64,000 nt of DNA, taken from the IMG/VR virus record IMGVR_UViG_3300031857_000055, positions 42,542-106,541 of that record; one strand, 5' to 3'. The notes below the pieces were generated by a model, which searched no databases, had not been told where the DNA came from, and saw nothing but the letters and a program-made list of their open reading frames with translations. How positions within the stretch are numbered: the first letter of the stretch is position 1; each line of letters begins with the position of its first letter. This document shows, in pieces, positions 2-33,360 of this stretch. The stretch comes from a virus. The position numbers and the translations under genes were made by a program.

Positions 2-949
2 AATTATGATGACATTGTAGATATCGCAGACCTAGACTGCATCTATCTAAGCTATGACGAACCTCAGAAAGAAGAATTCTGGATCAAGATTAAGAACATG
101 GTTCCGTGGGCTAAGCGAGTAGACGGAGTTAAGGGTAGTGATGCTGCACACAAGGCAGCAGGAGAAGCAAGTGAGACAGAACGTTTCATTCTCATTGACG
201 GCGACAACATGCCGGACGAAGACTTCTTCAATCTACAGTTAGACTTTACAGGATTAGATGAAAACTACAAGTTAGCGCAATATCGTTGGAGAGCGGTCAA
301 CGCAATCAACGGTCTGCGTTATGGCAACGGCGGTATGAGTTCTTGGACTAAGACTTATGTTGCCAACATGAAGACCCATGAGACAAGTGACGGAAGTGAT
401 ACAACAGCGGTTGATTTCTGCATGGATTCTTCAGATAATCTATACTGGGCAATGCACGATTGCTACTCTACAACGTATCCTAACTACACTCCCTTCCAAG
501 CGTGGAGAGCAGGATTCCGTGAAGGTGTCAAGATGGTGCTTGATCGGGGTGCAAAGCCCAGTATAGACGAATTTCGTGAACGAGTTGCTGGACGCAATCT
601 AAACAATCTTACTATTTGGCATAACGTTGGCGCAGATGTAGAGAATGGTCTTTGGGCTATCTATGGTGCAAGATTAGGCACGCATATGACCATGCTTACT
701 GATTGGAATTATCGTGATGTTGCAGACTTTGACAACTACCCTGCATTGTGGGACAAATATAAGCACAACAATCCAGTCCTTAGTGCTGGGTTTATCGGAG
801 AAGAACTTGAGAGTAAGTTAGGATTACCAATGTGTACTCTTGATGCTGAACAGTCTAAGTTCTTCAAGCGCCACTATAATTCAGACAAGTATAACATGGG
901 TCCTCTCGTTAAGGAGATGGACGTAATCCGCAGAATTGAAGGATGGTAA
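2..949 (+). CDS. GT-A-like glycosyltransferase domain protein; start lies at or just before the window edge
   Basis: Frame is open from nt 2 (NYDDIVDIADLDCIYLSYDEP...RVDGVKGSDAAHKAA...FILIDGD), upstream of the ORF-track start at 98; DxD motif; same architecture as the C-terminus of 27370..33360. Confidence 0.6.
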   Translation, partial: NYDDIVDIADLDCIYLSYDEPQKEEFWIKIKNMVPWAKRVDGVKGSDAAHKAAGEASETERFILIDGDNMPDEDFFNLQLDFTGLDENYKLAQYRWRAVNAINGLRYGNGGMSSWTKTYVANMKTHETSDGSDTTAVDFCMDSSDNLYWAMHDCYSTTYPNYTPFQAWRAGFREGVKMVLDRGAKPSIDEFRERVAGRNLNNLTIWHNVGADVENGLWAIYGARLGTHMTMLTDWNYRDVADFDNYPALWDKYKHNNPVLSAGFIGEELESKLGLPMCTLDAEQSKFFKRHYNSDKYNMGPLVKEMDVIRRIEGW

Positions 950-2346
950 TGTCAGAATCAGAAACAGACAGAATTAAAAGAATCCGCGACTTTATTGATG
1001 TGAACACTACGCCTACATTCTGTTTGGCTAAGTGGCAGCATGTCACAATGTATCTACAGTCGGGTGAGACACACTCTTGCTATCACCCAAAGCCGCACAA
1101 GATTCCATTAGCTGAGTTAAAAGATAACCCAAGTGCATTGCATAATACGATGCACAAGAAGCTTGAGCGTAAAGAAATGCTTGAGGGGAAGAAGCCAGAA
1201 GGCTGTCAATATTGCTGGAACATTGAAGAAATGGGCCCTGACTATATCAGCGACAGACATATTCGCAACGCAAGTATTTTTACAAAGGAACGCTATGAAC
1301 AAGCCAGTAAGGGAGCCTGGGACCAAAACATCAACCCAGAGTATTTGGAAATTAATTTTGGTAACGAGTGTAATTTTAAATGCGGCTATTGCCATCCGAA
1401 ATATAGTACAAGATTCTACAAAGAAATAGAAGACTTCGGTCCTGTTGAGAACGTAAAGAATCATCGCTGCGATGTTGACTGGATGAAGCTATTTCAACGT
1501 GAAGAAGAAAACCCGTATGTTGATGCTTTCTGGGAATGGTGGCCTGAGCTACGCAAGACACTAAACATCATGCGTGTTACCGGTGGCGAACCCACACTGC
1601 ACAAGTCAACATGGACACTGTTAGATAAGATTGATGAAGACCCAATGCCCTGGCTTGAGCTTAACATCAATAGCAATCTCGGCACTAAGAATATTCTTAT
1701 TGATCGCCTTGCCGTCAAAGTAAAGAAGCTGGTAGACGAAAAGAAAATTCGTGCATTCAAGCTGTTTACAAGCATGGACACATGGGGTGAACGTGCTGAG
1801 TATATTCGCACTGGTCTTGAATTAGAGCTATGGGAAAAGAATTTTCACACCTATGTTCAAAAGAGTGAAAGCCCCATCACATTCATGATCACGTTCAACA
1901 TCTTCTCAGTGACGAGCTTCAAGAGCTTGCTTGAGAAGTTCTTAGAGTGGCGCAGACAATATGGCTGGGATGAAGAACGCAAGCAGCATATCATTCGCTT
2001 TGACACGCCGTATCTACGTGAGCCTATTCAATACGATATGAACATTCTTCCTAAGGAACAGTTCATGCCCTACATGTACGAGTCATTGAAGTTTATGGAA
2101 GACAACTTAGATGACACTCGTGCAGACGCCTTCAGCACAATTGAATATGAAAAGTTCAAACGAGTTGTTGACTATATGGCAGAAACAGTGTATAGTGAAG
2201 ACAAGCTAATTGAAGGTCGCAGAGATTTCTATAATTGGTTTAATGAATTGGATGATCGTCGTGAGAATGATTTGTTGACTGTCTTCCCAGAAATGATGGA
2301 TTTTTATAAATTATGTCAACAAGTAAATTTGACGAACCCTCTCTGA
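949..2346 (+). CDS. Radical SAM enzyme with N-terminal Cys-rich (twitch/SPASM-like) domain
   Basis: CNFKCGYC, TGGEP, N-terminal FCLAKW..HSCYH..GCQYCW; TAATG coupling to the upstream gene. Confidence 0.88.
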   Translation: MSESETDRIKRIRDFIDVNTTPTFCLAKWQHVTMYLQSGETHSCYHPKPHKIPLAELKDNPSALHNTMHKKLERKEMLEGKKPEGCQYCWNIEEMGPDYISDRHIRNASIFTKERYEQASKGAWDQNINPEYLEINFGNECNFKCGYCHPKYSTRFYKEIEDFGPVENVKNHRCDVDWMKLFQREEENPYVDAFWEWWPELRKTLNIMRVTGGEPTLHKSTWTLLDKIDEDPMPWLELNINSNLGTKNILIDRLAVKVKKLVDEKKIRAFKLFTSMDTWGERAEYIRTGLELELWEKNFHTYVQKSESPITFMITFNIFSVTSFKSLLEKFLEWRRQYGWDEERKQHIIRFDTPYLREPIQYDMNILPKEQFMPYMYESLKFMEDNLDDTRADAFSTIEYEKFKRVVDYMAETVYSEDKLIEGRRDFYNWFNELDDRRENDLLTVFPEMMDFYKLCQQVNLTNPL

Positions 2347-2573
2347 GAAATAGAAAATGGGAGTGCATTGGTATGGATATGCCTAGCCAAAATGCCGTAT
2401 ATAATATCCGTGCGCAAGAAATCAGAGATTGGATTGAAGAACAACCGACAGTCATGTGGGCGCAGTATGGTATAGATGAGATTTACGAGGGTAAACCTAT
2501 ATCTGCAATGTTTGGGCAGAACTATGTCTTTACAGAAGAAATGGAGGCGTGGTTCACGTTAAGATGGGTATGA
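2313..2573 (+). CDS. Small phage protein of a family ending in F-x-L-(R/K)-W
   Basis: Overlaps both neighbours; C-terminus FTEEMEAWFTLRWV resembles ORFs at 39990, 40207 and 42885. Confidence 0.6.
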   Translation: MSTSKFDEPSLRNRKWECIGMDMPSQNAVYNIRAQEIRDWIEEQPTVMWAQYGIDEIYEGKPISAMFGQNYVFTEEMEAWFTLRWV

Positions 2574-3832
2574 ATTTAACAGATAAAGCAAAGAATAGCA
2601 AAACTTTTTGTGTGTATCCCTGGATACACATTCATACCAGTCCAATGGGAGCTATTGCACCATGCTGCATAGGGGCGTCGGTGTCAAACACCGATTTAGC
2701 CGACGAAGTAAAAGGAAAACGTCTTGATGATTTAGTAAATCATGACAGAATCAAGCAGTTACGGTTAGACATGCTTGCAGGAAAAAAATGTAGTGAATGT
2801 AAAATCTGTTATGAATTAGAAGATGCAGGGGTTGATAGTTTTAGAGTAACGGGCTTGAGAGAATATCCTGAGGTCGCTGAGGAATTAGTAACTGACACTA
2901 ATATAGATGGATCACTGTCTAATTTTGAAATGCGTTATTTTGATATGCGCTTTAGTAACATTTGTAACTTCAAGTGTAGAACTTGCGGTCAAGAATATAG
3001 CAGTCAGTGGGAACAAGAAAATCTACGAAACAACGTATCATATGCAAGGATGTTTTCTAAAGGTGCCGAAACTGAATTACTTGAAGATGTGTTAGAACAA
3101 GTACCCAACTTTGAAACTGCGTATTTTGCAGGCGGTGAACCTCTGATTACCGAAGAACATTATATTATCCTAGAAGAAATGATTCGTAAAGGTAAGACTG
3201 ATGTGGCATTGCGGTATAATACTAACATGAGCAATATTAAATTCAAGAACAAGGATTTAATGTCTCTTTGGAAAAACTTTAAACATGTTAATGTATCTGC
3301 GAGTATTGATCATTACGGTGAGAGAGCAGAATATATTAGGCATGGTACTAACTGGTCAGTTGTAGAAGAAAACTTAAAGATAGCTAAAGAATCAGCCGTG
3401 GTTAACTTATCCTTAAATACTGTTCTGAGCGTGTTTAACTTTTTTACCATTGACTCTTTTTACAAGTATATGCACCACGCTAACATCTATACTAAAAATA
3501 GTCCGGAATCAACATTATACTGCATGACCTCGCCTGATCACCTGGCATGTCATTGGTTGAATCCAGAACATAAACTTATAGGGAATGAGAGCTTAAGTAG
3601 AGCAATAAATTTTATGGAACAAGAAAATTTCCGAGAAGGTCACATCCGACATATCAAAGCAGCATTAAATTGGTCGTGCTCCAAAGACACTTCTGATAAC
3701 ATAGACGGGAGTGGTTATACTAACGCTATCAATTTCAGAAATTCTATTGAGGAACTAGACAAGATCAGGGGAGAATCATTTGAGAAGGTATTTCCTGAAT
3801 TGATTCCAATATTGGAATCTACATATGAATAA
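2570..3832 (+). CDS. Radical SAM enzyme with N-terminal twitch/SPASM-like domain
   Basis: CNFKCRTC, AGGEP, FCVYPW..PCC..CKICY; ATGA overlap start. Confidence 0.88.
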   Translation: MNLTDKAKNSKTFCVYPWIHIHTSPMGAIAPCCIGASVSNTDLADEVKGKRLDDLVNHDRIKQLRLDMLAGKKCSECKICYELEDAGVDSFRVTGLREYPEVAEELVTDTNIDGSLSNFEMRYFDMRFSNICNFKCRTCGQEYSSQWEQENLRNNVSYARMFSKGAETELLEDVLEQVPNFETAYFAGGEPLITEEHYIILEEMIRKGKTDVALRYNTNMSNIKFKNKDLMSLWKNFKHVNVSASIDHYGERAEYIRHGTNWSVVEENLKIAKESAVVNLSLNTVLSVFNFFTIDSFYKYMHHANIYTKNSPESTLYCMTSPDHLACHWLNPEHKLIGNESLSRAINFMEQENFREGHIRHIKAALNWSCSKDTSDNIDGSGYTNAINFRNSIEELDKIRGESFEKVFPELIPILESTYE

Positions 3833-5054
3833 AGACTTTCTCTTAAACGATAGCAAGACATTTTGCATGTTCCCGTGGGTGCATTTAAATGCGACGCCTA
3901 AGGGTGACGTATATCCTTGCTGTAGTAATGACTATACAGACCCAGTTGGTAACACTAAGAATAATTCATTAGAAGAAATCTTTAACAGTCCAAAGATGAA
4001 AGAATTACGCTTGGATATGTTAAACGAGCGTAAAAATAAGATTTGCGACTTCTGCTATAAGCACGAAGAAGCTGGCCCGTATAGTTTCCGTAACTATAGC
4101 AAAGAACACTTTGGCAAATACTTTGATGAAATTGTACCCACCACACAAGATGATGGTACTGTTGACGAATTCAAGATGAGATATTTTGATATCAGATTTA
4201 GTAACATTTGTAACTTTAAGTGCAGAACCTGTGGGTCAGAGTTTAGCTCTAAGTGGGGCGAAGAAATGCGCAAGAACTACGACCCTAATCATCCCGTGTT
4301 AATTCACGTTGATGATAATCGTGGCACAGTTCTTGATGAAGTGTTAGAGCATATTGAACATATTGATCTTGCATACTTTGCGGGCGGCGAACCACTCATC
4401 ACTGATGAGCATTATACTATGCTTGAGGCAATGATTCGTAAGGGCCGCACTGACATTACTCTACGCTATAACACAAATGCAAGCAATATCAAGTATAAAA
4501 AGCATGATGTACTTGATTTATGGAAGCATTTTAAAAAGATTGAACTAAGCTGTAGCATTGATCACTATGGCGAACGTGCTGAGTATATGCGTAAAGGAAC
4601 AGACTGGGGAGTTGTAGAAAGCAATTTACTTACATTCCGTGAATTGGATTATGTTATCTTTCAGATGAATACTGTTTTCAGTATCTACAACTACCTCACT
4701 ATCGGAGACTTTTATCAATATCTTAAGGATAAGAACATCGTGAGAACAGAAGATTGGTATCATTCGCTCTATCTTGCCGTACATCCTAATTATTATTGTG
4801 CTAAAAGTCTCCCTAAAGAATTAAAAACAGTAGCAGGTGAAAAAGCATTAGCCTGGGCTAACGCTAATATGGACGACAAGACTTGTGTACCAAGACTCGT
4901 GGTAGATGCAGTGAACTTTGCGAACGATACCGATCAGTGGGGCGAAGTCAGAGACAAGTTCTTGATGCATACTAAGTCAGTTGACAGAATTAGAGGCGAA
5001 AACTTCTGGGAAACCTTCCCCGAATTAAATAGATTACAGGATTTATATGAATGA
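3825..5054 (+). CDS. Radical SAM enzyme with N-terminal twitch/SPASM-like domain
   Basis: CNFKCRTC, AGGEP, FCMFPW..PCC..VGN..CDFCY; close paralog of 2570..3832. Confidence 0.9.
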   Translation: MNKDFLLNDSKTFCMFPWVHLNATPKGDVYPCCSNDYTDPVGNTKNNSLEEIFNSPKMKELRLDMLNERKNKICDFCYKHEEAGPYSFRNYSKEHFGKYFDEIVPTTQDDGTVDEFKMRYFDIRFSNICNFKCRTCGSEFSSKWGEEMRKNYDPNHPVLIHVDDNRGTVLDEVLEHIEHIDLAYFAGGEPLITDEHYTMLEAMIRKGRTDITLRYNTNASNIKYKKHDVLDLWKHFKKIELSCSIDHYGERAEYMRKGTDWGVVESNLLTFRELDYVIFQMNTVFSIYNYLTIGDFYQYLKDKNIVRTEDWYHSLYLAVHPNYYCAKSLPKELKTVAGEKALAWANANMDDKTCVPRLVVDAVNFANDTDQWGEVRDKFLMHTKSVDRIRGENFWETFPELNRLQDLYE

Positions 5055-5173
5055 ACGAAAAGAAGTACTGTCCCCCATTATCATTGACCACTCAGTGGGA
5101 ATTTTGGGCTTGGATTTATAATATGAAGCGAAATGACAGTGCAAGGTTCAAGAAGAAGAAACAGTATGATTGA
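5051..5173 (+). CDS. 40-aa Trp-rich peptide (not in ORF track)
   Basis: MNEKKYCPPLSLTTQWEFWAWIYNMKRNDSARFKKKKQYD; ATGA overlap with the upstream stop and its own stop overlaps the next ATG, filling the gap exactly. Confidence 0.6.
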   Translation: MNEKKYCPPLSLTTQWEFWAWIYNMKRNDSARFKKKKQYD

Positions 5174-6443
5174 CAAGAATAAAGTAGAAAAGTTAGTTAC
5201 AGAAGGTAAGCATTTTTGCGTGTTGCCTTGGGTGCATTTTCATGCATGGCCCGATAAGCGAGTAATGCCTTGCTGCGTTGCTGACAGTAACATGCCGGTA
5301 GCTCAAATTGAGGGCGATCAATCTATTATTGAAATGATGAACAGCGACCGCTACAAGGAAATTCGTGCGGCGATGCTTGATGACATTGAAGTTCCTGAGT
5401 GTAAGCGTTGCTTTGACCTTGAGCTTATGGGTACATGGACTATGCGCCAGAGTCATAATAAGCGCAGAGGTCAAGACTATGTAAACTACATTGCTGAGAA
5501 CACACAAGAAGACGGTGCGCTCTCAGAGTTTGAAATGAAGTACATGGACATTCGTTTCAGCAATCTATGTAACATGAAGTGCCGTAGTTGTGGCCCAGAC
5601 TGTTCAAGTCAGTGGGCGCAAGAGTTTGTTGACAAGCGTGGAAAACAAATGTGGGAAGAATACTTCCCTAATCGTAAAGTAGTCATCAACAATAACGATG
5701 ACCAAAAGTTTATGGTTAAGTTAAAGCCATATCTTGCAGACGTTTCAGAAGTATACTTTGCTGGCGGCGAAATTATTATTACGCCAGAGCATTATGAATG
5801 TCTTGATTATTGGGTTGAAAATGGTCAGGCAGATACTATTGAATTAAACTATACTACTAATTTCTCAACATTACATGGATATAAAGACAAGAACCTACTT
5901 GAATATTGGAAGAAGTTCAAGAATATTCAAGTGTGGGCGTCATTAGATGCACACGGTGATCTAGCCGAATGTATTCGTAAGGGCACTGATTGGGATAAGA
6001 TCGTTGCTAACATTAAGAAGTTGAAGGAAGAACTTCCTCACGTACAATTGAGCATTACGCCTACTATTAGTATTTGGAATATCTTTAAGTTCCCTGACTT
6101 CTTTGACTACATGGTTGAAAACAATTTGCTGGATCTAACGATTAGTCCAAGATTTAATCTTGCGACTAGCCCATGGTATGCTAATGTCATGATTCTTCCT
6201 AGACATGTAAAGAACAGATTAGTTGAGCTTTACCGTGTTTATCAGAACAAGTACGGCAAAGATAATATGGATATTTATAATGGCTTCAAGATGATTATCT
6301 ATAATCTAAGCGTAGGCGACGAAAACAAAGGAGGCATTCTGGAGTTCAAGCAGTTCAATGACGAGCTGGATCAGTTTAGAAATGAGAAGTTTGAAGACCT
6401 TGTTCCGGAGATTAAGGAAGTGTACGAGTGGGCCGCAAGTTAA
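5166..6443 (+). CDS. Radical SAM enzyme with N-terminal twitch/SPASM-like domain
   Basis: CNMKCRSC, AGGE, FCVLPW..PCC..CKRCF; start set at MIDKNK. Confidence 0.88.
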   Translation: MIDKNKVEKLVTEGKHFCVLPWVHFHAWPDKRVMPCCVADSNMPVAQIEGDQSIIEMMNSDRYKEIRAAMLDDIEVPECKRCFDLELMGTWTMRQSHNKRRGQDYVNYIAENTQEDGALSEFEMKYMDIRFSNLCNMKCRSCGPDCSSQWAQEFVDKRGKQMWEEYFPNRKVVINNNDDQKFMVKLKPYLADVSEVYFAGGEIIITPEHYECLDYWVENGQADTIELNYTTNFSTLHGYKDKNLLEYWKKFKNIQVWASLDAHGDLAECIRKGTDWDKIVANIKKLKEELPHVQLSITPTISIWNIFKFPDFFDYMVENNLLDLTISPRFNLATSPWYANVMILPRHVKNRLVELYRVYQNKYGKDNMDIYNGFKMIIYNLSVGDENKGGILEFKQFNDELDQFRNEKFEDLVPEIKEVYEWAAS

Positions 6444-7390
6444 TTGCAATTGAGGCACCTGAGCAATATCTTGCTATTACATGGCAGGTAAACAATTTCT
6501 GCAACTTCCGCTGTAGTTATTGTAACCCTGGCAACTGGGCAGGCGAAAATCCTAACAACGGTAACCTAGATATCTACATCAATAATCTCAAGGCGATCAT
6601 TGACAAGTATCTTGATATAGGATATAAAAACTTTAAGTTCTTTTTCAGCGGCGGAGAGCCTACAGCTTGGAAGAACTTTATTCCTATCTGTGAATTTCTA
6701 AATGATTACGTATCATGTACATTAGCAGTCAATACGAATCTAAGCAGACCATTAGCCTGGTGGGAAAAACATCACCATTTATTTGATGACGTTGTTGCAA
6801 GTTATCACGTAGAGTTCGCTAAGAAGGAACGCTACGAAGAAAACAATATCTTTCTATGCGACAAAGTAAACTACTTGTCAACTAAAATGTTATTACACGA
6901 TGAGAGATTTTGGGAAGTAGTTGAGTTCGGCAATCATCTAAAGACAGTGATGCCTAATTACTTTATTGAGTGGACTCCGCTGTTTGACGAAATGACTGTC
7001 AACGCTGGCCCCTGGAAATATGCTGATCCGTTGAAAGAACAGTTTGTACGTGAGAACACGATTGAAATCAAGCAGACACTACCTAAGCCCAATAAAAGAT
7101 GTGAGACAGTCAGCTACAGTAGATATGATGATGGTTTTGTCACACCGACAAATAGCAATCAAGTAATTGTAGATGGCGAGAACTTCTTTAGTGGCTGGAA
7201 ATGCAACGTGGGCGATAGTATCTTCATTAGCCCTAATGGTCAAGTAAGCTTAGCAAGCTGCGGGCAAGGCGGCGTAGTAGGCCATATTTTAGAAGACATA
7301 AGTAAAGTAGGGCCCAAGCAAATCACATGCTTCAAGCAGCATTGTCATTGTGGCACCGATATCATCATTCCCAAATTTAAGGTAGACTAA
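6428..7390 (+). CDS. Radical SAM enzyme with C-terminal Cys cluster
   Basis: CNFRCSYC, SGGEP, C-terminal WKC..ASC..C..HCHC. Confidence 0.85.
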   Translation: MGRKLIAIEAPEQYLAITWQVNNFCNFRCSYCNPGNWAGENPNNGNLDIYINNLKAIIDKYLDIGYKNFKFFFSGGEPTAWKNFIPICEFLNDYVSCTLAVNTNLSRPLAWWEKHHHLFDDVVASYHVEFAKKERYEENNIFLCDKVNYLSTKMLLHDERFWEVVEFGNHLKTVMPNYFIEWTPLFDEMTVNAGPWKYADPLKEQFVRENTIEIKQTLPKPNKRCETVSYSRYDDGFVTPTNSNQVIVDGENFFSGWKCNVGDSIFISPNGQVSLASCGQGGVVGHILEDISKVGPKQITCFKQHCHCGTDIIIPKFKVD

Positions 7391-8718
7391 TGGAAAAGAC
7401 TAAAGTAGTATATAGTTGGATTGGACCAAGAGGTCCCATATGGAATACTGAGTTACCTAATGTGTACTCTTTTGCATGTGTTACCTTCGAAGGCCAAACG
7501 AACAGCACTAAGTTTAACGCTGATGACACCTGGCTATCATTTTTTAGTCACGGCAAAGACATGTTTGAAATGTATCCTTCTCCTGCTATTGAAGAAAATG
7601 ATGACAGACATTTTATTATCCCCTTCTCACTTGTATGGAGAATCAACTTTGAAAGTTATTTCTTAGGTAGAACAGGACTTCTGGAGTTTGCTCACACGCC
7701 ATGGCACTTAATTAATCTGGTGCGTGAAAAGAATGGTTATATTTTGATTGACTACAGTGTAGAAGCATTCTTAGAGCATAGACACATCAATGCACTACAT
7801 GCTTATTTTGGACAAATACATAATATACCATTGCACAAGATCATTTATTTGACCGGCACGGTTAATGCTAAAGAAATTTATGATGAATATTGTTTAGTGA
7901 AGAACATTCCCGATACTCCCGAGAATCGTTTAACTATTGTACCATATGCAGCGTCACAGCATATATTCAGACCAAACCTCGAAGAACATCCCGAACCTGA
8001 ATATAATACAGAGATAGTTCCGGAAAAGTTATTCTTATCATGGAATCGTAGATATAGGCAGCATAGACTTGAGCTTGCACCAATTCTTGAGCTACACAAT
8101 GTAGTTGAGAGAAGTTATATTAGCTTCAGTAGATCACATATTGAAAATCCATCATTAGACTTCTTAAATGAAGCCAGCTCACTGTCGTTACATAATAGAT
8201 TCAATGATTTAGGAATAACTCGTGAAATCGTAGAACGATTTTATAATAGACTTCCATTAGTATTAGATGGAGAAGACGAAATTGTACAAATGTGTCAAGA
8301 CCATGATAACGTATCAAGACCTTATTATCAGAATAGTTTGATCAGCTTGATAACTGAAACGAACTTTTACAATGTTGAAGGAACATTAACTGAGAAAAGC
8401 TTTAAGCCCTTCAAAGAAAAGCATCCATTCATATTAGTAGGGGCATTTGGCTGCTTGAAAGCTATGAGAGATTTGGGCTTTAGAACATTCGGAGAATTTT
8501 GGGATGAGAGTTATGATACAATTCAAGATCCTACTCTGAGAATGAAAGCTATTGCTAAAATTATTGAGCAAATGAGTCATTGGTCTAACGAGCAAATATT
8601 AGAGTTTAGACGCAATGTTAAACCAATATTGGATCATAACTATCAAGTATTAAAAAATAGTAGCCGCAGACACATAGTTGAAAAAGTACATCATATTGTG
8701 CGAGGAAGCGATGCGTAA
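7390..8718 (+). CDS. Putative glycosyltransferase (GT-B-like, paralog 1 of 5)
   Basis: FLSWNRRYRQHR..SLITET..LTEKSFKP..HPF..GFRTF..DESYD; the TEK block recalls the GT10 donor-binding motif. Confidence 0.6.
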   Translation: MEKTKVVYSWIGPRGPIWNTELPNVYSFACVTFEGQTNSTKFNADDTWLSFFSHGKDMFEMYPSPAIEENDDRHFIIPFSLVWRINFESYFLGRTGLLEFAHTPWHLINLVREKNGYILIDYSVEAFLEHRHINALHAYFGQIHNIPLHKIIYLTGTVNAKEIYDEYCLVKNIPDTPENRLTIVPYAASQHIFRPNLEEHPEPEYNTEIVPEKLFLSWNRRYRQHRLELAPILELHNVVERSYISFSRSHIENPSLDFLNEASSLSLHNRFNDLGITREIVERFYNRLPLVLDGEDEIVQMCQDHDNVSRPYYQNSLISLITETNFYNVEGTLTEKSFKPFKEKHPFILVGAFGCLKAMRDLGFRTFGEFWDESYDTIQDPTLRMKAIAKIIEQMSHWSNEQILEFRRNVKPILDHNYQVLKNSSRRHIVEKVHHIVRGSDA

Positions 8719-18602: not shown

Positions 18603-18625
18603 CTACACGATATAGGGAGCAACAC

Positions 18626-23286: not shown

Positions 23287-23296
23287 TAGTTCTCGT

Positions 23297-23302
23297 TAAA
23301 TA
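23297..23302 (+). promoter_or_regulatory. T4-like late promoter TAAATA
   Basis: 5 nt before ATG 23308. Confidence 0.55.
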
Positions 23303-23307
23303 CTATT

Positions 23308-25760: not shown

Positions 25761-25861
25761 TGAGATGGATTAGAAATATTATTAACAAGATCAAACGAGA
25801 AATTCAGTATCGTAAGAGAATCAAGGAACTCAAGAAAAGAGATCCTTTCATTTACAAGTGA
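25760..25861 (+). CDS. 33-aa basic peptide ending DPFIYK (not in ORF track)
   Basis: MRWIRNIINKIKREIQYRKRIKELKKRDPFIYK; AGGAG SD, TAATG coupling, directly upstream of the carbamoyltransferase. Confidence 0.65.
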   Translation: MRWIRNIINKIKREIQYRKRIKELKKRDPFIYK

Positions 25862-25867
25862 GATAAA

Positions 25868-27361
25868 ATGAACTACGTAGGTATTAGTTGCGGCTTCCAT
25901 GATGCCGGCTTAAGCGTCATTGATGATAATGGCAATATACTTTTTGCTGGGCATAGTGAGCGTTACAGCATGAAGAAACACGACAGCGAATTGTGTTTAG
26001 GCATTGTTGAAGATGCTAAACGCTATATCAACGATGACTTTGAAGTACACTATTATGAGCGTCCGTATGTCAAGGCTGTTAGGCAGTTTATTGCTAAGCA
26101 AAAGCTTGGCCCTTTCAATGTCAACGAGATTATTGGCAATCAGAACCTACGCGGATTAGATAGTTTTAGGCACATTCGTCAGGGTAAAGTAAAGACTCAC
26201 AATCATCATCTATGTCACGCCGCTGCAGGGTTCCAAACAAGTCCGTATGAAGATGCTACCGTAGTTGTCATTGACGCTATTGGGGAATTAGATACTATTA
26301 GCATTTGGGATGCAACGTATGATAAGAACGGTAAAGCAAAATACAAGAAGATTTGGGGCCGTAAGTATCCTGACTCTATCGGACTATTCTACTCTGCGAT
26401 GACAGCACGAGTAGGCTTGCGCCCGCTAGATGAAGAATACATTCTAATGGGCATGGCTGCATATGGTAAGCCTGTATATGATATCTCAATGCAACAACTG
26501 TTCATCAACTTTAAAGAGATTGTTTTAAAAGACAACCTGCACATCGGAGTTGATGAGAAGTTTCTAAAGGATGCAGACGAAATGGATATTGCTGCATCTG
26601 CACAGGTTGTTGTTGAACAGCTAATAGAAACAGTAATGAAGAAGGCTAAGAAGTTAGGTAGAAGTGACAATCTCGTATATGGGGGCGGCGTTGCTCTCAA
26701 CTGTCTTGCCAACAGATTGATTGGCAAGTACTATCAGAACATTTGGATTATGCCTAACCCGGGCGATGCAGGCAACAGCTTAGGTGCAGCAGCGTTAGGC
26801 TATGGTAAGAAGGTCAACTGGACTGATGCTTTCTTAGGATTTGACATTGAAGGTGATTATCCGGTTGACAATATCATCAAAGAATTATATAGTAACAAGA
26901 TGGTAGGTGTCGCTAGTGGCAGGGCAGAATTTGGCCCTCGTGCATTAGGTAACCGAAGTCTACTTGCAGACCCTCGCGGGCCTGATATTAAGGATAAAGT
27001 AAATGACATTAAACGAAGACAGAAGTTCAGACCGTTTGCGCCTATCATTTTGGAGGAGCTGGTTACTGATTACTTTGATATGCCTAGTGGCTGGAGTGAC
27101 AGTCGGTATATGCAAGTCATCGCTACTTGTAGGCTACCTGACTTATTTCCTGCTATCGTTCATCATGACGGGACTTCTCGTGTTCAAACTGTCCCGAATG
27201 ACGGATCAGGAATTAGAAAACTACTAGAAGCTTGGTATAAAGAAACCGGCTGCCCAATGCTATTGAATACGTCATTGAACATTCGCGGAGAACCTATGGT
27301 TAATGATAGAAACGATGCGGACAGGTTTGAAAAACTCTATGGGGTAACTGTCTGTAGCTAA
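25868..27361 (+). CDS. O-carbamoyltransferase (NodU/CmcH/TobZ family)
   Basis: FHDAG, HHLCHAA, GGVALNC, GRAEFGPRALGNRS, RPFAP, DGTSRVQTV, LLNTSLN. Confidence 0.93.
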   Translation: MNYVGISCGFHDAGLSVIDDNGNILFAGHSERYSMKKHDSELCLGIVEDAKRYINDDFEVHYYERPYVKAVRQFIAKQKLGPFNVNEIIGNQNLRGLDSFRHIRQGKVKTHNHHLCHAAAGFQTSPYEDATVVVIDAIGELDTISIWDATYDKNGKAKYKKIWGRKYPDSIGLFYSAMTARVGLRPLDEEYILMGMAAYGKPVYDISMQQLFINFKEIVLKDNLHIGVDEKFLKDADEMDIAASAQVVVEQLIETVMKKAKKLGRSDNLVYGGGVALNCLANRLIGKYYQNIWIMPNPGDAGNSLGAAALGYGKKVNWTDAFLGFDIEGDYPVDNIIKELYSNKMVGVASGRAEFGPRALGNRSLLADPRGPDIKDKVNDIKRRQKFRPFAPIILEELVTDYFDMPSGWSDSRYMQVIATCRLPDLFPAIVHHDGTSRVQTVPNDGSGIRKLLEAWYKETGCPMLLNTSLNIRGEPMVNDRNDADRFEKLYGVTVCS

Positions 27362-27364
27362 GTA
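27359..27364 (+). promoter_or_regulatory. Late promoter variant TAAGTA
   Basis: 5 nt before ATG 27370, same spacing as the TAAATA sites. Confidence 0.45.
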
Positions 27365-27369
27365 TACAT

Positions 27370-30300
27370 ATGCTTAGAGACGTTTTTTATTATGGCAAGA
27401 AGCCCAATGTCCACCCAAGAGAACAATTCGCAGAAAATCTAGCTGATGCTAGACTAAAGGCCACTACTCGTGACTTTTGGATCATCAACGAGTTCTGCGA
27501 CTACAGAAATTTTGATTGGGACTTTGATTTTGAATTCCTCCCGGACGAAGACGTTTGGGCAGAAGATCACAATAACGTGTGGCCCAGTCAACATCAAAAA
27601 GATAGCGGCACCTGGTTGTGTTCTAAAGAACATAGTGACCTAATCATCTATCGCGGTGACGTAGACCCAGTCATTCGTAAAAACGAAAAGACCGATCATT
27701 GGGTTGAACTTGATTTAATTAATCACAATAAGTTTGACTTTAGTTGGCACCCTGACCCAACTGACCCTCCCTATATCTATAAGTGGCCCTGCAAGTTCTT
27801 CCCTGCTGAGTTCAAGCATGTGTTAGAATATCGTGTGCCAGGAGCAACGCAAGAAAAATACATGAACACAATTGCAGAGTTGGTTCCTGAGTATGATCGT
27901 TGGGAAGAACATCAAGCAATTGACAAAGATAGATTTGATATGTCGTGGAGACCGAATCCACTTGACCCGCCATTCACATATGTTTGGGGCAACAAATATA
28001 TTGACGGGACACTTAGGCCCACGCTGGAGTATCATACACCAGGAGCAACTGATAAGAAGTATATGTCAGAACTTGTTCCAGTACTGCCCGAAACTGATAG
28101 ATGGAGCATAGTCGAAGATATTGATAAAACATCGTTTGACTTTAGCTGGAGACCTGATCCTAGAGAACCTGCATTCATTTACGTATTTGGTAACGAACAA
28201 TATGATGGCACTATCATGCCTACTGTTGAGTATCACTGTCCCGATGCAAATGAAATTAAGTACGTCACTGATATCAAAGCCAAGCTATCAAGTAAGAGAG
28301 AATTATTTGAACATCTTGAAGACAGCTATGGTTTAGATTATACTTGGAGACCCGACCCTACAAGTCCTCCCTATATCTATGCGTGGGGGAATCAGTGGAA
28401 TGCTCCAGAAGATAAAATCTCAGTGCAGTATGTTGTAGATGGTGCAACAGAATACAAGTATATGACTGACAGGGCTGTTCGCAGACCATGCATGGATAAC
28501 TGGATAGTCCCCAAAGATGTTGATACAACTGGATTTGATTTCAGTTGGGAACCTAGCCCTGCTGCACCACCGTATATTTACGAGTTCGCAACACAATGGC
28601 AAAAGACGGGCGGCCCTCAGTATGTAGTGCCCGGCGCTACTGAGAAACAGTATGTTGACTTCCAAAAGGTCAGAAAACTACCTTCAGTAGATAATTGGAA
28701 TGTGCCTGATAACATTGATAGCACTACGTTCGACTTCAGTTGGCACCCAGACGATACAAGTCCCCCTTACATTTATGTGTTTGCTACCCAATGGGCATTC
28801 AGCGGCGGCCCTGTATACAAGGTAGAAGGCGCTACAGAAATCAAATACGTAGACGAACAAGTAGCGACTGCTAAGCCAGATAGAACCAATTGGGTCTATG
28901 ATGAAAAACTAATTGATATAGCAGAGTTTGATTTTAGTTGGCATCCATATGTAGAAGACCAGCCCTATATCTATCAGTTTGGAACTCAATGGCAAAAGAC
29001 GGGCGGACCTAAGTACATTACCTCGGGTGCAGATAGCTCCAGCCCAGTTAAGTACATTGACACCCGTATCATCAAGTCTACCCGTTTACCGACCCCAGAT
29101 AACAAGTGTTGGAATAATCTATATCCTATAAAAGATTTTGATTATAGTTGGCACCCCGACGACACCGAAGAACCATATATCTACGTGTTTGGAAATACTC
29201 AGTACCCTGCCGAAGAGTGTGCTACTATTGAATATAGAATGGAAGGTGCTACTCAGGTAAAGTATGTTCGTGATATAGTTGCGACATTAGATATAGATAT
29301 GACTAATTGGGTCATACCAAAAAATGTAGACTGTGCGGGCTTTGACTTTAGCTGGATACCTAATCCTAACGACCCTTTATATATCTATGAGTTTGGAACT
29401 CAGCATCAAAAGACGGGAGGACCTCGTTACGTAGTATCAAATGCTACTGAAATCAAATATATTGATTCACAAAAGGTAATCATACTACCCAACAAAAGTG
29501 ATTGGTTCATACCTGATAATGTTGATGTTGCTGAGTTTGATTTTAGCTGGCACCCTGATGATACTGACCCTCCCTATATCTATCAATTCGGCACTCAGTG
29601 GGCGCTGTCGGGCGGCCCTCGTTATGTAGTTGACGGTGCAACAGAAATCAAATATATGGATAATCTAGTTGCTAAGGCACTGCCTGATAGAACTAATTGG
29701 GTCTATGATGAAAACTTAATTGATGTAGCAGAGTTTGATTTTAGTTGGCATCCTTACGCAGAAGATGATCCCTATATCTATCAGATTGGTACTCAGTGGC
29801 AGAAAACAGGTGGCCCTAAATATATTACACCGGGGGCAGATTTATCTAGCCCTGTGAAATATATTGACACACGTATTATCAAAGCTAGACGCTTAGAAAA
29901 TCCTGAGAATACATGCTGGGTAAGAAATTATCCTATCAAGCATTTTGATTATAGTTGGCATCCGGATGAGACAGAAGAACCTTATATCTATGTTTTCGGC
30001 AACAAGCAATTTTTAGCTGAGGAATGTGCCACCGTCGAATATAGAATACCGGGAGCAACGACTGTAAAGTACATACCCGATATCATTGCAACATTAGATG
30101 TTAACATGGATAAATGGGTTGTCCCTGATAACATAGACACGACTGATTTTGACTTTAGTTGGATTCCTAATCCAAGTGAGCCACCATATATCTACGAGTT
30201 CGGCACTCAGTGGCAAAAGACAGGCGGACCTAAATATGTTATGCCGGGAGCTTGGCGCGGAACAAAATACGTTGATGATCAAACAGCAAAGAGACTTCCG

Positions 30301-33300
30301 GACCATCAGTACTGGACTGTTCCTGACTATATTGACAAGGAAAGCTTTGATTTTAGTTGGCACCCCGATGCTACAGAAGAACCATATATCTATGTATTCG
30401 CTACACAGTGGGCATTTAGTGGCGGGCCAGTATATACGGTTCCGGAAGCTACTGAAATTAAATATGTAGAAGAACAGCTTGCTACAGCACTTCCTAATAA
30501 GGCTAATTGGGAATACGATGCAGATGCAATTGATATTGACAGCTTTGATTTTAGCTGGCACCCATATGTAGAAGATCAGCCCTACATCTATCAGTTTGGT
30601 ACTCAGTGGTGGGAAACAGGTGGCCCTAGATACATTGCCCCCGGTGCCGATGCTGACAGCCCTATCAAATATATTGATACTAGAATTATCAAGGCTACAA
30701 CAAAGTCCAGACTAGACAATTGGGAAATACCCGATACCGTTGATGTTTCTAAATTTGATTTATCTTGGGTACCGCATCCGGAAGACCCGCCCTATATCTA
30801 TGTGTTTGGTAACCAATGGTTCCCTGCTGAAAAGATGCCCACTGTAAAGTATCATGTCGAGGGCGCAACTGAATTAAAGTATGTGTCAACCATTAGTGCT
30901 ACACTAAAGCCAGACATGACAAACTGGAGAATTCCTAAGAATCTTGTCATTAAAGATTTTGACTTTAGTTGGGTACCTGACCCTTACGATCCTCCGTACA
31001 ATTATATATTCGGAAATCAGTGGTACGGAGCTCAAGAAATGACAACGGTGACATACGCTGCTCCGGGGGCTAAAGAAGATAAATTTGTAACTGATATAGT
31101 TGCAACTTTAGGAAAGAACTTAACTAACTGGGAAATTCCTGCAGGAGTCGATGTTCGTAGGTTTGATTTTAGCTGGATACCGCATCCAGCTGCACCCCCT
31201 TATATCTATCAGTTTGGTACATTACAAGATCCTACCGACGGTCCTATATATAATACTCCTAATAATAATGGAGAAACAGTCCGCGTTCCTAGATTAGAGA
31301 CTGATGAAGAATTAAATCCGACAGGAGAGGCCCCATCTGAAATTCAAATCAATAGATATTACCTTACTACTACGATAGAAGACCTTGCTAAGCAACACCC
31401 TGATGAATTGTTCTGGGCATTGAATCCAGACATTGATTATACTAATTTTGATTTCGATTGGAGACCTAGTATTGAACAAGCAGAATACGTTCATGCGTTC
31501 GGTTCTGCTGCCAGTGAAAAGACACAGACATATTTCGTTAACGGTCCACAATGGGTCAAGGGAAATCGTGCTATCAACTGGGTACAAAACGTAGAACTAA
31601 CTGAAAAGGCATTGGCGGAGATGTTCGTTAAGCCTGATATGTTCTTTGTTGATAGAAGCAACCCTGAATCTGCTGCTAGATTTGAAGCACTAAGGGCGAA
31701 ATATGGTACAAGAATTCAGAAGACTCGCTATCTGAATAGCTGGGTTGACACTATCAATCGTTGTGCTAATCGTGCAACGAGTAGTTTGATTTGGGTATTG
31801 AATAGCGAACTTGACTATAGCGATTTTAACTTTGATTACTATCCTAACCCTTGGCAGATGAAGATGGTTCATGTGTTTGGTACTCAGTGGTCACATTGGG
31901 GAACTACATTCATGGTCAACCGTGAGACATTTGCGGAAGACACCAAATATATCAAGATCATTGAACACTTGAGTAATCTAAACTTTGTGAAAGACATTAG
32001 AGCTAAAGCTACAAAATGCAGTCACGATATCATTGTAATTGATCACGGTAATAAAGAAACATCCGATGTTGTATCCATCTTACAGCAGAAGGCGCCGGAC
32101 AGAACAGTTGTTACTACCAAATACAATGGCAGCTATTTGGACACACTAAGAGAAGTTATCAAGCGCCAGCCTGAAAAGAAAGAACATTTCATTTGGGTAT
32201 GCTCAAGTGTTTGCGATTACACTAACTTTGATTTCACATATATCATTGATCCATTTTCAAGAGACAATCTACATGTTTTTCCTAGCGGTAAGCAGAAGTT
32301 CGGAGACACGTTCTTCATTGATGTTAATAATGCAAGAGAAGTAATCAGTGAACTTGACAAGCTTGAAAACTTTACTAAGGTAAATTATAATGGTGCTGTG
32401 AAGGCAGAACGCCTAAAAGAACCAATCATCGTCATTAGTGATGACACTCATACGAGTTCAATTGACAAAATTACTGACTTCCCTTATGCGACATTAATTA
32501 CAAGTGATAACGTTGACATTGGTAAGGTTGACATAGAGCCAATGAATCTATGGTCAGCCGAAACTAAGAATATCTACGTGACAAGCACAGGTTCTACTAG
32601 AATTGTTGCTCCTAAAGAAATCAAGGATCACGTTAAGAAAGAGCTATACGAATATCCATATATCAAACGTGCTCCTAAGCTGGCATTGTCAAATCCATTA
32701 GACATTGTGTTCTTGAGTAACGGAGAAACTGGAGCAGAAGAACATTATGAGCATTTGCTGAATATCACTAAGAATCTCCCTAACAGAGTAGTGAGAGTGG
32801 ATGGCGTGAATGGTCGTGCAGCAGCATATCACGCAGCAGCAGAAGCAAGCAACACTCCTTGGATGTTCACTGTGTTTGCTAAGCTGAAGGTCAGTCCTAA
32901 GTTTGACTTTAACTGGCAACCAGATAGAATGCAGAGTCCAAAGCATTATATCTTCCATGCAAAGAATCCTGTTAATGGATTGGTATATGGTCACCAAGCA
33001 ATGATTGCGTACAATAAGAAGCTAACTCTAGCCAATGACGGTAAAGGACTAGACTTTACATTAGATGATGAGCATGAAGTTGTTCCGTTGATTTCAGGTA
33101 CTGCTCAATACAACACTGATGAGTTCTCAACATGGAGAACAGCATTCAGAGAGGTCATCAAGCTTAGAGCAGATGATAGCGAAGTGTCTAAGGAAAGACT
33201 TGATGCATGGTTGAATAAGGCAGAGGGTGACTTTGCTCAATACAGCATCAAGGGTGCGTTGGATGCAGACGAGTATTACGATGAAGTAGACGGCGACTTT

Positions 33301-33360
33301 GACCAGTTGAAGTTGAGCTATGAGTGGGCTTGGCTCAGAGAAAAATTTGACCAAATCTGA
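27370..33360 (+). CDS. 1996-aa repeat protein with degenerate GT-A-like modules
   Basis: 18 close copies of FD(F/Y)SWxP..PYIY; C-terminal domain DIVFLSNGE..RVDGVNGRAAAYHAAA..NGLVYG..WRTAFRE similar to ORF 2..949. Confidence 0.8.
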   Translation: MLRDVFYYGKKPNVHPREQFAENLADARLKATTRDFWIINEFCDYRNFDWDFDFEFLPDEDVWAEDHNNVWPSQHQKDSGTWLCSKEHSDLIIYRGDVDPVIRKNEKTDHWVELDLINHNKFDFSWHPDPTDPPYIYKWPCKFFPAEFKHVLEYRVPGATQEKYMNTIAELVPEYDRWEEHQAIDKDRFDMSWRPNPLDPPFTYVWGNKYIDGTLRPTLEYHTPGATDKKYMSELVPVLPETDRWSIVEDIDKTSFDFSWRPDPREPAFIYVFGNEQYDGTIMPTVEYHCPDANEIKYVTDIKAKLSSKRELFEHLEDSYGLDYTWRPDPTSPPYIYAWGNQWNAPEDKISVQYVVDGATEYKYMTDRAVRRPCMDNWIVPKDVDTTGFDFSWEPSPAAPPYIYEFATQWQKTGGPQYVVPGATEKQYVDFQKVRKLPSVDNWNVPDNIDSTTFDFSWHPDDTSPPYIYVFATQWAFSGGPVYKVEGATEIKYVDEQVATAKPDRTNWVYDEKLIDIAEFDFSWHPYVEDQPYIYQFGTQWQKTGGPKYITSGADSSSPVKYIDTRIIKSTRLPTPDNKCWNNLYPIKDFDYSWHPDDTEEPYIYVFGNTQYPAEECATIEYRMEGATQVKYVRDIVATLDIDMTNWVIPKNVDCAGFDFSWIPNPNDPLYIYEFGTQHQKTGGPRYVVSNATEIKYIDSQKVIILPNKSDWFIPDNVDVAEFDFSWHPDDTDPPYIYQFGTQWALSGGPRYVVDGATEIKYMDNLVAKALPDRTNWVYDENLIDVAEFDFSWHPYAEDDPYIYQIGTQWQKTGGPKYITPGADLSSPVKYIDTRIIKARRLENPENTCWVRNYPIKHFDYSWHPDETEEPYIYVFGNKQFLAEECATVEYRIPGATTVKYIPDIIATLDVNMDKWVVPDNIDTTDFDFSWIPNPSEPPYIYEFGTQWQKTGGPKYVMPGAWRGTKYVDDQTAKRLPDHQYWTVPDYIDKESFDFSWHPDATEEPYIYVFATQWAFSGGPVYTVPEATEIKYVEEQLATALPNKANWEYDADAIDIDSFDFSWHPYVEDQPYIYQFGTQWWETGGPRYIAPGADADSPIKYIDTRIIKATTKSRLDNWEIPDTVDVSKFDLSWVPHPEDPPYIYVFGNQWFPAEKMPTVKYHVEGATELKYVSTISATLKPDMTNWRIPKNLVIKDFDFSWVPDPYDPPYNYIFGNQWYGAQEMTTVTYAAPGAKEDKFVTDIVATLGKNLTNWEIPAGVDVRRFDFSWIPHPAAPPYIYQFGTLQDPTDGPIYNTPNNNGETVRVPRLETDEELNPTGEAPSEIQINRYYLTTTIEDLAKQHPDELFWALNPDIDYTNFDFDWRPSIEQAEYVHAFGSAASEKTQTYFVNGPQWVKGNRAINWVQNVELTEKALAEMFVKPDMFFVDRSNPESAARFEALRAKYGTRIQKTRYLNSWVDTINRCANRATSSLIWVLNSELDYSDFNFDYYPNPWQMKMVHVFGTQWSHWGTTFMVNRETFAEDTKYIKIIEHLSNLNFVKDIRAKATKCSHDIIVIDHGNKETSDVVSILQQKAPDRTVVTTKYNGSYLDTLREVIKRQPEKKEHFIWVCSSVCDYTNFDFTYIIDPFSRDNLHVFPSGKQKFGDTFFIDVNNAREVISELDKLENFTKVNYNGAVKAERLKEPIIVISDDTHTSSIDKITDFPYATLITSDNVDIGKVDIEPMNLWSAETKNIYVTSTGSTRIVAPKEIKDHVKKELYEYPYIKRAPKLALSNPLDIVFLSNGETGAEEHYEHLLNITKNLPNRVVRVDGVNGRAAAYHAAAEASNTPWMFTVFAKLKVSPKFDFNWQPDRMQSPKHYIFHAKNPVNGLVYGHQAMIAYNKKLTLANDGKGLDFTLDDEHEVVPLISGTAQYNTDEFSTWRTAFREVIKLRADDSEVSKERLDAWLNKAEGDFAQYSIKGALDADEYYDEVDGDFDQLKLSYEWAWLREKFDQI
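27700..31260 (+). repeat. Intragenic tandem repeats of about 65-70 aa, with a 4-unit higher-order period of about 807-810 bp
   Basis: Matching Trp codons in NWVYDE/NWVYDE/NWEYDA at 28891, 29698 and 30508; near-identical DNA around the first two. Confidence 0.88.

Follow-up and report, generated by a model that had tools for sequence, protein, structure and literature searches.

Hypervariable regions beside the tail-fibre genes of T4-like myophages are the closest described counterparts of the locus analysed here. In pelagimyophages and cyanomyophages such a region carries glycosyltransferases (GTs), a UDP-glucose dehydrogenase and cassettes of radical S-adenosylmethionine (rSAM) enzymes, all known from annotation only, and its GTs have been proposed to alter the host envelope against superinfection (PMC7029224, Zaragoza-Solas et al. 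2020). Our literature search found no experimental study of such a fibre-adjacent region, and searches for jumbo-phage rSAM enzymes together with GTs, or for twitch domains together with nucleotide-sugar epimerases, returned nothing. We analysed a 64,000-nucleotide stretch (the window, to which positions refer unless stated otherwise) comprising bases 42542–106541 of the 106,541-bp IMG/VR record IMGVR_UViG_3300031857_000055, in which positions 2–33360 form an island of GT, rSAM and sugar-tailoring genes. Like the published region, the island is a variable block by the fibre genes of a T4-like myophage: fibre genes lie upstream, both GT and rSAM genes are present, and cassettes vary between close relatives over the 159 loci that we compared. 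The pelagimyophages and cyanomyophages have genomes of ~150–250 kb, whereas the island belongs to a ~360-kb jumbo phage of the PA5oct/Atu_ph07/RsoM2USA terminase group. Unlike the published region, it has a fixed core of a GT-A gene, five rSAM genes and a B12-binding rSAM gene, and it holds GTs invisible to Pfam, a StrB1-type amidinotransferase and carbamoyltransferase–micropeptide modules. The folds and families of its proteins, the lack of membrane proteins, its location after the fibre genes and the core-plus-cassette layout are the established part of our interpretation. Because GT folds and nucleoside diphosphate (NDP)-sugar enzymes coincide with solubility, fibre-gene adjacency and this pattern of conservation, we favour a system that assembles a glycan on a phage structural protein in the cytoplasm and edits it by radical chemistry, a reading that we hold at slightly below an even chance.

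The record is a fragment of a ~360-kb T4-like jumbo phage, because it carries T4-type core genes, its large terminase shares ~50% identity with the terminases of three jumbo phages (Phosso, PA5oct and Atu_ph07), and its near-complete relatives measure 333–364 kb, two of them with terminal repeats; CheckV puts its completeness at 29%. The T4-type core, which an earlier note made from the letters of the window had recognised, lies downstream of the island and encodes a gp32-like single-stranded DNA-binding protein, UvsX, the large terminase, a helicase and virion proteins. Searched by megablast in 50,697 phage records, the island and the downstream 24 kb matched only a short thymidylate-synthase stretch. 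Positions 2–33360 contain 25 open reading frames (ORFs) of at least 80 aa, all on the + strand and abutting or overlapping, with a biggest gap of 107 nt, and an additional 33-aa micro-ORF. The co-direction and overlap described in the earlier note are thus as stated, and its count of about 27 genes becomes 25 ORFs plus the micro-ORF. The island is co-directional with the fibre genes upstream in the record, where a baseplate hub gene, a baseplate wedge gene (857 bits to phrog_10646) and a 6548-aa ORF are followed by fibre-like proteins with a common N-terminal domain and an intramolecular-chaperone C-terminus. The 6548-aa ORF is a single frame (record positions 14892–34538) directly after the wedge gene. 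Between the fibre genes and the GT-A gene, record positions 40671–42550 hold three small conserved genes of no assigned function; two are mutual paralogues, all three are conserved with the island in the clade, and two also occur in phage RsoM2USA. The cluster had been thought to continue leftwards beyond the window: its first gene does so by only 2 nt, and at most ~1.9 kb of upstream genes of unknown function might belong to it.

The division of the island into core and cassettes emerged from its relatives. The 754-aa B12-binding rSAM protein has relatives in 191 IMG/VR stretches, of which 80 loci (61–94% identical) were kept, and one N-terminal-twitch (N_Twi) rSAM protein has relatives in 126. 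Synteny was compared over 159 fetched loci, a sample that the 10-kb flank limit biases to short versions of the island. The conserved order begins with the fibre genes, the GT-A gene, the N_Twi array, the short rSAM gene and a variable stretch, and continues with the B12-rSAM gene, a second variable stretch, an SGNH-like gene, the carbamoyltransferase and the repeat protein. The N_Twi genes at 943 and 5133 were present in 93 of the 93 loci spanning their interval, and a third N_Twi gene in 88. Between the short rSAM gene and the B12-rSAM gene, individual tailoring genes occurred in 0–40% of 60 spanning loci, and the gap ranged from 2 to 9403 nt. Because the core is present in all spanning loci and the tailoring genes vary, the island consists of a fixed core (GT-A gene, rSAM array, B12-rSAM gene) with swappable cassettes. 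Co-conservation of the genes in relatives, on which the earlier note's view of a single cluster depended, therefore holds for the core, in more than 190 contigs; the genes for amino, guanidino and methyl steps are optional cassettes and not core.

Structure prediction alone resolved the GT families, because Pfam and profiles against PDB sequences found nothing. Twelve ORFs had no Pfam or NCBIfam match. The GT-like island ORFs did not match any Pfam glycosyltransferase family at E≤0.01, and Glycos_transf_1 (PF00534), Glyco_transf_10 (PF00852), Glycos_transf_2, Lipase_GDSL_2 and ADI gave nothing in the record at E≤1, although the control for PF00852 found nothing anywhere either. No Pfam domain was annotated on GT-B homologues among the 120 matches listed of 454, and profiles of the GT-A gene, a GT-B paralogue, three SGNH-like families and the 2-oxoglutarate (2OG)-oxygenase-like domain had no significant match to PDB sequences. 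The first gene of the island, the core gene P0002 (2–949, +, its full length starting 2 nt left of the window), gave an AlphaFold2 model with a mean predicted local distance difference test (pLDDT) of 92.1 and a predicted template modelling score (pTM) of 0.91. Both Foldseek and VIA placed residues 5–170 in the GT-A fold. The top Foldseek match was PBCV-1 A64R (E 5e-4), and the VIA matches, among them B4GALNT1 at Z 9.4, had Z scores of 9.4–7.9 with a root-mean-square deviation (rmsd) of 3.1–3.8 over ~143 residues. The DxD motif (D67, D69) does not vary in close relatives and reaches at least 90% conservation in a set of 64 sequences. P0002, which has 103 related loci and belongs to a family of 1507 representative clusters, is accordingly a GT-A-fold protein with a DxD motif as judged from its model.

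The ORF at 13542–14642 (+) was modelled as well (pLDDT 92.9, pTM 0.90). Every one of the 43 matches from Foldseek at E≤1e-3, and each of the 50 best VIA matches (Z 11.0–7.7), was a GT-B enzyme, the best being T4 BGT at Z 11.0 with an rmsd of 5.6 over 273 residues. Four further ORFs share with it the pattern NRRxRxHR ... SETNF..(S/T)EKxFKP..HPF. The variable-cassette gene at 7390–8718 (+), which travels with the epimerase gene, was joined to the modelled family by hhalign (probability 100, E 2e-47), as was the C-terminal half of the fusion protein at 23308–25014 (+; 99.8%, E 4e-28). The variable genes at 9691–10758 (+; ...TES...TEK..KP...PF motif) and 17442–18599 (+; family invariants at 24–26% identity) were placed by alignment A10, with no separate profile comparison for either. 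The five paralogues thus form a family with a predicted GT-B fold through its modelled member, and the five GT-B-like proteins of the earlier note are accounted for, one by model, two by hhalign and two by the motif alignment. Its two GT-A-like proteins likewise correspond to P0002 and to the 1996-aa protein at 27370–33360 (+), which carries 18 regular FDFSWxP repeats of 65–70 aa, several diverged units and a P0002-like C-terminal GT-A domain (BLASTP E 3e-8). In this domain FTVFAK replaces ILIDGD, so that the DxD motif is absent. Relatives of the protein range from ~1430 to 2390 aa, and Tandem Repeats Finder detected no DNA-level tandem repeat in the gene. The earlier note's expectation that the GT-like ORFs have GT folds is therefore matched by predicted GT-A and GT-B folds for P0002 and the ORF at 13542–14642. 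The fusion at 23308–25014 begins with a cupin/2OG-oxygenase-like domain (residues ~1–170) with an HxD...H pattern, which matched viral 170-aa proteins in Atlas structures (template modelling score 0.82–0.88), one cluster of which is 21% Asp_Arg_Hydrox. Hence the GT-B half of the proposed 2OG-oxygenase fusion stands, and the 2OG part amounts to a motif and an Atlas lead. The fusion recalls hydroxylase–glycosyltransferase fusions that act on structural proteins. The glycan-on-virion reading is supported by the structural neighbours of the GT models, since these include the protein O-glycosyltransferases SdgB, GtfA and POGLUT as well as the capsid-glycosylating PBCV-1 A64R.

The first rank of T4 BGT raises the question of whether the island serves sugar hypermodification of phage DNA, like the glucosylated hydroxymethylcytosine of T-even phages. 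The T4 beta- and alpha-glucosyltransferases top the VIA list of the GT-B model at Z 11.0 and 10.1, and the attachment of complex groups to bases by rSAM and pyridoxal phosphate (PLP) enzymes is known from phages (PMC8989533, PMC5889632). However, many GT-B enzymes that do not act on DNA score within 1 Z unit of the T4 enzymes. With 367 bits, above the equivalog cut-off of 327, the sole gene of the thymidylate-synthase family in the record scores as a true ThyA; it lies beside the dihydrofolate reductase (DHFR) gene, and each of four relatives that are 92–100% complete has a single gene of this family. Tet_JBP matched in 0 of 5 records, with a weak control for the family, and DNA modification would leave the position in the fibre module unexplained. 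We consider this explanation very improbable. The earlier note's preference for decoration over DNA precursor synthesis gains from fibre adjacency, solubility, the single ThyA and the lack of TET/JBP matches, and loses the late-promoter argument on which it had been based.

Seven rSAM enzymes had been counted in the island, and Pfam and NCBIfam confirm all of them: four members of NF033640 (N_Twi_rSAM), one short protein and two B12-binding proteins. The four paralogues at 943–2346, 2549–3832, 3825–5054 and 5133–6443 (all +) score 311.4, 358.5, 378.7 and 362.0 bits, respectively, against a curated whole-protein cut-off of 170 bits. They share with the family the N-terminal auxiliary-cluster domain with four cysteines and the CX3CX2C motif, and in 11 sequences C14, C33, C74 and C77 and the motif cysteines C129/C133/C136 are invariant. 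In the island phage the family forms a conserved tandem array tied to the GT-A gene. The Pfam SPASM match lies N-terminal to the Radical_SAM match, and a profile of the N-terminal domain matches the twitch domain of BtrN (E 5.6e-6), which is C-terminal in that enzyme. The rSAM core of the profile best matches TvgB (8VPO, E 5.5e-11), a maturase of peptides that are ribosomally synthesised and post-translationally modified (RiPPs; PMC10878394). Literature searches on NF033640 found no biochemical study, so that membership in this family gives no function. The short rSAM protein (6428–7390, +, 320 aa; Pfam Radical_SAM 29.8 bits) is a core gene with 121 related loci and, at 33.8 bits on NF033640, not a member of the family. 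Both B12-binding proteins match the Pfam B12-binding and Radical_SAM families. The gene at 11575–13545 (+) is a variable cassette of the KedN5-like C-methyltransferase type (NF033712, 246 bits, below the cut-off of 700), and the core gene at 18626–20890 (+, 754 aa) has as its best NCBIfam match a RiPP C-methyltransferase model (104 bits, below cut-off).

Genes for N_Twi rSAM proteins also occur in Bacteriovoracaceae, Flavobacteriales, Haliscomenobacter, Paenibacillus and other bacteria, in metagenome-assembled genomes (MAGs) as well as isolates. In about seven such loci that we annotated with Pfam, the neighbours include GT2, acyl carrier protein (ACP)/ketosynthase (KS), GDSL-like, DUF6071 and WelO5-like genes. 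Some contigs labelled as MAGs, with 78% identity, resemble mis-binned phage fragments. The cultured 255-kb Vibrio phage K566 (OZ196521.1, 161.5–179 kb) has five N_Twi-like rSAM genes among hypothetical genes, which makes it a possible second system for experiments.

The kinship with peptide-modifying enzymes suggests an alternative in which the rSAM core modifies a peptide or protein, either the micropeptide or the FDFSWxP repeat protein, and the sugar enzymes then glycosylate the product. The closeness of the twitch/SPASM rSAM core to TvgB and the best match of the core B12-rSAM fit this account. So do the match of the P0002 model to the peptide S-glycosyltransferase SunS (Z 8.1), the Atlas lead of the 2OG-like domain to a protein hydroxylase family, and a micro-ORF with an invariant C-terminal KRDPFIYK. 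This 33-aa frame (25760–25861, +) ends in KELKKRDPFIYK; its last 12 residues are near-invariant and its N-terminus is variable. We observed it in all 47 carbamoyltransferase-bearing relatives, and it is missing from 33 loci that have the gene at 25011–25760 but lack the carbamoyltransferase. By this co-inheritance its partner is the carbamoyltransferase rather than the rSAM core, which those 33 loci retain. In distant relatives the same motif terminates a longer acidic ORF. An 86-aa ORF within the N_Twi stretch (2313–2573, +) was considered as a precursor peptide and rejected, since it recurs in just one related locus. Pfam found no RRE/PqqD domain in the island, and no RiPP-type partner was present among the annotated neighbours of the bacterial N_Twi genes in the loci described above. 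With the micropeptide following the carbamoyltransferase and the 86-aa frame lacking conservation, peptide modification appears an improbable purpose of the core.

The tailoring genes include two for NDP-sugar metabolism, for which Pfam upholds the epimerase and the sugar dehydrogenase named in the earlier note. The first encodes an NAD-dependent epimerase/dehydratase of the short-chain dehydrogenase/reductase (SDR) family (8678–9691, +; Pfam Epimerase E 2e-44), whose best NCBIfam match, below cut-off, is GDP-L-fucose synthase-like. The second encodes a nucleotide-sugar dehydrogenase (16252–17442, +) with the N-terminal and central UDPG_MGDP_dh domains (TIGR03026, 151 bits, below the cut-off of 189.8). 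The aminotransferase is a minimal DegT/StrS-type aminotransferase-like protein of 196 aa (20887–21477, +; Pfam DegT E 1.7e-12); it keeps the PLP-lysine motif, DAA and SFxxKK do not vary, and 45 relatives have the same short form. The adjoining methyltransferase (21474–22328, +), a rare cassette found in 7 related loci, is a class-I S-adenosylmethionine-dependent enzyme, in line with the methyltransferase that had been proposed; it matches Methyltransf_25 and Cons_hypoth95 (E 6.5e-7), the latter the sole Pfam family above its cut-off (29.6 bits against 24). For the amidinotransferase (22300–23286, +), a profile built from orthologue alignments of related loci matched the inosamine-phosphate amidinotransferase structure 1BWD over residues 4–320 at E 6.8e-85, and AGAT at 1e-47. 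The catalytic motifs GGCFHC, HxDS and FDAAN are invariant, in accord with the StrB1 parallel drawn earlier. The carbamoyltransferase (25868–27361, +) carries both domains of the NodU/TobZ family, Carbam_trans_C (E 1.9e-47) and Carbam_trans_N (E 8.6e-34), as expected of the TobZ type.

Four proteins had been described as SGNH-like, a lead that comes from their motifs. In the protein at 10755–11621 (+) the motifs GLGCSWTQGEGG, GIGN and HPTxxGY are invariant. The paralogues at 14639–15418 and 15442–16239 (both +), which are also DUF6071-like, carry FGCSFT, GxGN and DYHP. The near-core gene at 25011–25760 (+), with 68 related loci, has an invariant GCSHxAGSE motif. Profile comparison by hhalign linked the first protein to the paralogue family (90.6%) and this family to a DUF6071 protein (97.7%, E 2e-12) whose gene, in a Haliscomenobacter MAG, is flanked by two N_Twi rSAM genes; the link of 25011–25760 to the other SGNH-like proteins is weak. 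The motifs resemble blocks I (G-x-S), III (G-x-N) and V (D-x-x-H) and are invariant, yet none of the four proteins has a Pfam match or a significant PDB-profile match, the nearest being a sub-threshold GDSL match at E 0.79.

The earlier note compared this enzyme set with aminoglycoside tailoring, and the island does have family counterparts of the StrB1, StrS, TobZ, BtrN and GenK types. It differs from aminoglycoside clusters in that a cyclitol synthase was not found by Pfam, no exporter-type membrane protein is encoded, a resistance gene was not recognised, amino and guanidino steps come as optional cassettes, and there are seven GT-like domains. Pfam scans of the 25 ORFs at E≤0.01 showed no cyclitol-forming enzyme (2-deoxy-scyllo-inosose synthase or inositol-phosphate synthase), these families not having been searched for individually and the ORFs without a match being either members of the GT, SGNH-like and repeat families or of no assigned function, and none of the transporter, phosphotransferase or rRNA methylase families. 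Because no cyclitol synthase was found, the term aminoglycoside-like applies to the tailoring steps only; the parallel holds for these and fails for the cyclitol-forming enzyme and the exporter.

A cyanomyovirus trio of aminotransferase, inosamine amidinotransferase and rSAM genes has been noted as "antibiotic synthesis genes" (PMC12801897), and one might likewise see in the island the source of a free soluble metabolite, a pseudo-oligosaccharide or aminoglycoside-like compound with guanidino, carbamoyl and C-methyl groups that acts on the host or on competitors. The StrB1-, DegT- and TobZ/NodU-type enzymes, the B12-rSAM methylase types and the BtrN-like twitch domain would suit such a product, as would the solubility of all island proteins and the ACP/KS and WelO5-like natural-product genes adjoining bacterial N_Twi genes. 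We nevertheless regard a free metabolite as unlikely. Apart from the missing cyclitol-forming enzyme, exporter and resistance gene, and from amino and guanidino genes that are optional, it is hard to reconcile with seven GT-like domains and a repeat protein of 1996 aa, and it offers no explanation for a constant location after the fibre genes.

Hydropathy over 19-residue windows stays below 1.6 in all 25 island proteins and in nine upstream proteins. The island proteins are all soluble and have no membrane segment. This absence of hydrophobic windows means that the locus encodes no flippase, polymerase, initiating transferase or exporter; by the same hydropathy measure, none of these proteins is a Wzx, Wzy or WecA or another membrane component of a Wzx/Wzy- or ABC-type locus. 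The finding bears directly on the published view of GT-rich regions with rSAM cassettes by pelagimyophage tail fibres (PMC7029224), which for the island would mean that unusual NDP-sugars are fed into, or used to modify, the lipopolysaccharide or capsule of the infected host and block superinfection. The NDP-sugar enzymes and a cassette variability like that of O-antigen loci are consistent with this. But a membrane initiating transferase, flippase, polymerase, ligase or transporter is missing along with any transmembrane segment, RsoM2USA and PA5oct, the cultured relatives that share the terminase type, are lytic jumbo phages, and with a latent period of only hours in RsoM2USA an investment of 33 kb seems large. 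Envelope change during infection is thus quite unlikely, and host-surface decoration, which the earlier note had allowed beside virion decoration, is unlikely to be done by the phage's own machinery.

Soluble viral GTs and sugar enzymes that decorate structural proteins in the cytoplasm have been described for PBCV-1 (A64R), for the fibril clusters of mimivirus, and for the capsid and tail of mycobacteriophages (Freeman et al. 2023, as cited in PMC12801897). The island resembles these virion glycosylation systems in its soluble enzymes. To our knowledge, none of them includes rSAM arrays, amidinotransferases or SGNH-like paralogues. That the phage builds a heavily modified glycan, as the earlier note supposed, agrees with the occurrence together of GT-A and GT-B folds, NDP-sugar enzymes and StrB1-, DegT- and TobZ/NodU-type enzymes, and with the recurrence of the genes in more than 190 related contigs. 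In the pathway that we propose, the SDR epimerase/dehydratase and the NDP-sugar dehydrogenase would take up host NDP-sugars, the minimal DegT enzyme would aminate a keto-sugar, and the StrB1-type amidinotransferase would turn the amine into a guanidino group, with methylation in a few relatives. Oligosaccharide assembly on a soluble acceptor would fall to the GT-A protein with as many as five GT-B paralogues, and the N_Twi array, the short rSAM protein and the B12-rSAM proteins would perform C–H chemistry on the sugars (such as oxidation, epimerisation or C-methylation). The SGNH-like proteins may act on O-acyl groups, adding or removing them, and carbamoyl groups may come from the carbamoyltransferase together with its micropeptide. 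The acceptor would most likely be a phage structural protein, either the fibres from the genes just upstream or the repeat protein of 1996 aa. By swapping cassettes, the phages could then vary their virion surface in the way that bacteria vary theirs through O-antigen loci.

Several observations weigh against this pathway. The SGNH-like and 2OG-like assignments, not confirmed by a profile or fold test, are leads; a nucleotidyltransferase for sugar activation was not found in the island; and S/T-rich acceptor repeats, which we sought in the fibre proteins, were absent from what is ordinary fibre composition. TvgB as the best match of the N_Twi rSAM core may indicate peptide substrates, and the T4 DNA glucosyltransferases as the best VIA matches of the GT-B model may point to DNA, tied as they are with others within 1 Z. 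Moreover, the GATAAATA(C) motif, which precedes phage structural genes, has zero occurrences within 1–33360.

The earlier note had taken four TAAATA/TAAGTA sites in the island to suggest late expression. The 106-kb record contains 14 copies of TAAATAC where 15.5 are expected; four of these lie within 1–33360, and the sites at 18597 and 23297 directly precede gene starts. The T4 late promoter TATAAATA was seen twice in the window, for an expectation of 5, and its only + strand copy is at 34251. Sigma-70 and terminator scans gave hits at shuffle level only. With the sites at chance frequency and the fuller motif absent inside the island, the late-promoter argument fails.

A more specific version of the glycan-on-virion reading is possible, if rather doubtful: the rSAM array, the B12-rSAM and the GT-A protein would edit protein-attached sugars by radical chemistry, the guanidino, carbamoyl and acyl cassettes would create a serotype-like fibre coat, and the invariant KRDPFIYK micropeptide would be a partner or carrier that the carbamoyl step requires. 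Such a coat would be a programmable glycan on jumbo-phage fibres, affecting adsorption or evasion. If there is a virion glycan, a widespread environmental clade of jumbo phages, with at least 190 IMG/VR contigs that carry the island, spends about one-tenth of its genome on a diversifiable sugar coat, and virus-encoded glycosylation, known from giant eukaryotic viruses and mycobacteriophages, would extend to T4-like jumbo phages. It would also give functions to orphan families, namely the NF033640 rSAM proteins, the GT-A and GT-B families that databases do not recognise and the carbamoyltransferase–micropeptide pair, and a phage StrB1-type amidinotransferase would supply a sugar with a guanidino group.

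Experiments could start directly from the cultured Ralstonia jumbo phage RsoM2USA. Its genes RsoM2USA_348–358 form a mini-version of the island behind a giant structural ORF and fibre genes, in the order epimerase, fibre N-domain protein, two genes homologous to the small upstream ones, P0002 homologue (40% identical), N_Twi rSAM gene (35%) and second P0002-like gene. A carbamoyltransferase (44.5% identical) adjoins another N_Twi rSAM gene elsewhere in the genome. The B12-rSAM, a member of the GT-B family and the micropeptide were not found in the loci examined, and all the island-type genes of this phage are annotated as hypothetical. The giant ORF361 (2541 aa), the counterpart of the 6548-aa ORF, is a virion protein confirmed by mass spectrometry (PMC8504454).

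Directly after the island, ARAGORN identified a permuted tmRNA (34235–34553, +) with the tag peptide VAANDNNVDLALAA, and a GATAAATAC motif lies at 34520 just before the next ORF. This ORF (34532–36610, +) encodes a 692-aa protein with a GNAT domain and is followed by a MoxR-type AAA ATPase (37021–38121, +) and a DUF2201 metallopeptidase/VWA-like protein (38392–39750, +). A second small sugar locus, outside the island and after the DHFR and ThyA genes, occupies 43408–45403 (+); it consists of an SDR protein, whose best match is dTDP-glucose 4,6-dehydratase, and a full-length DegT-type aminotransferase that is PseC/WecE-like, both matches being below cut-off.

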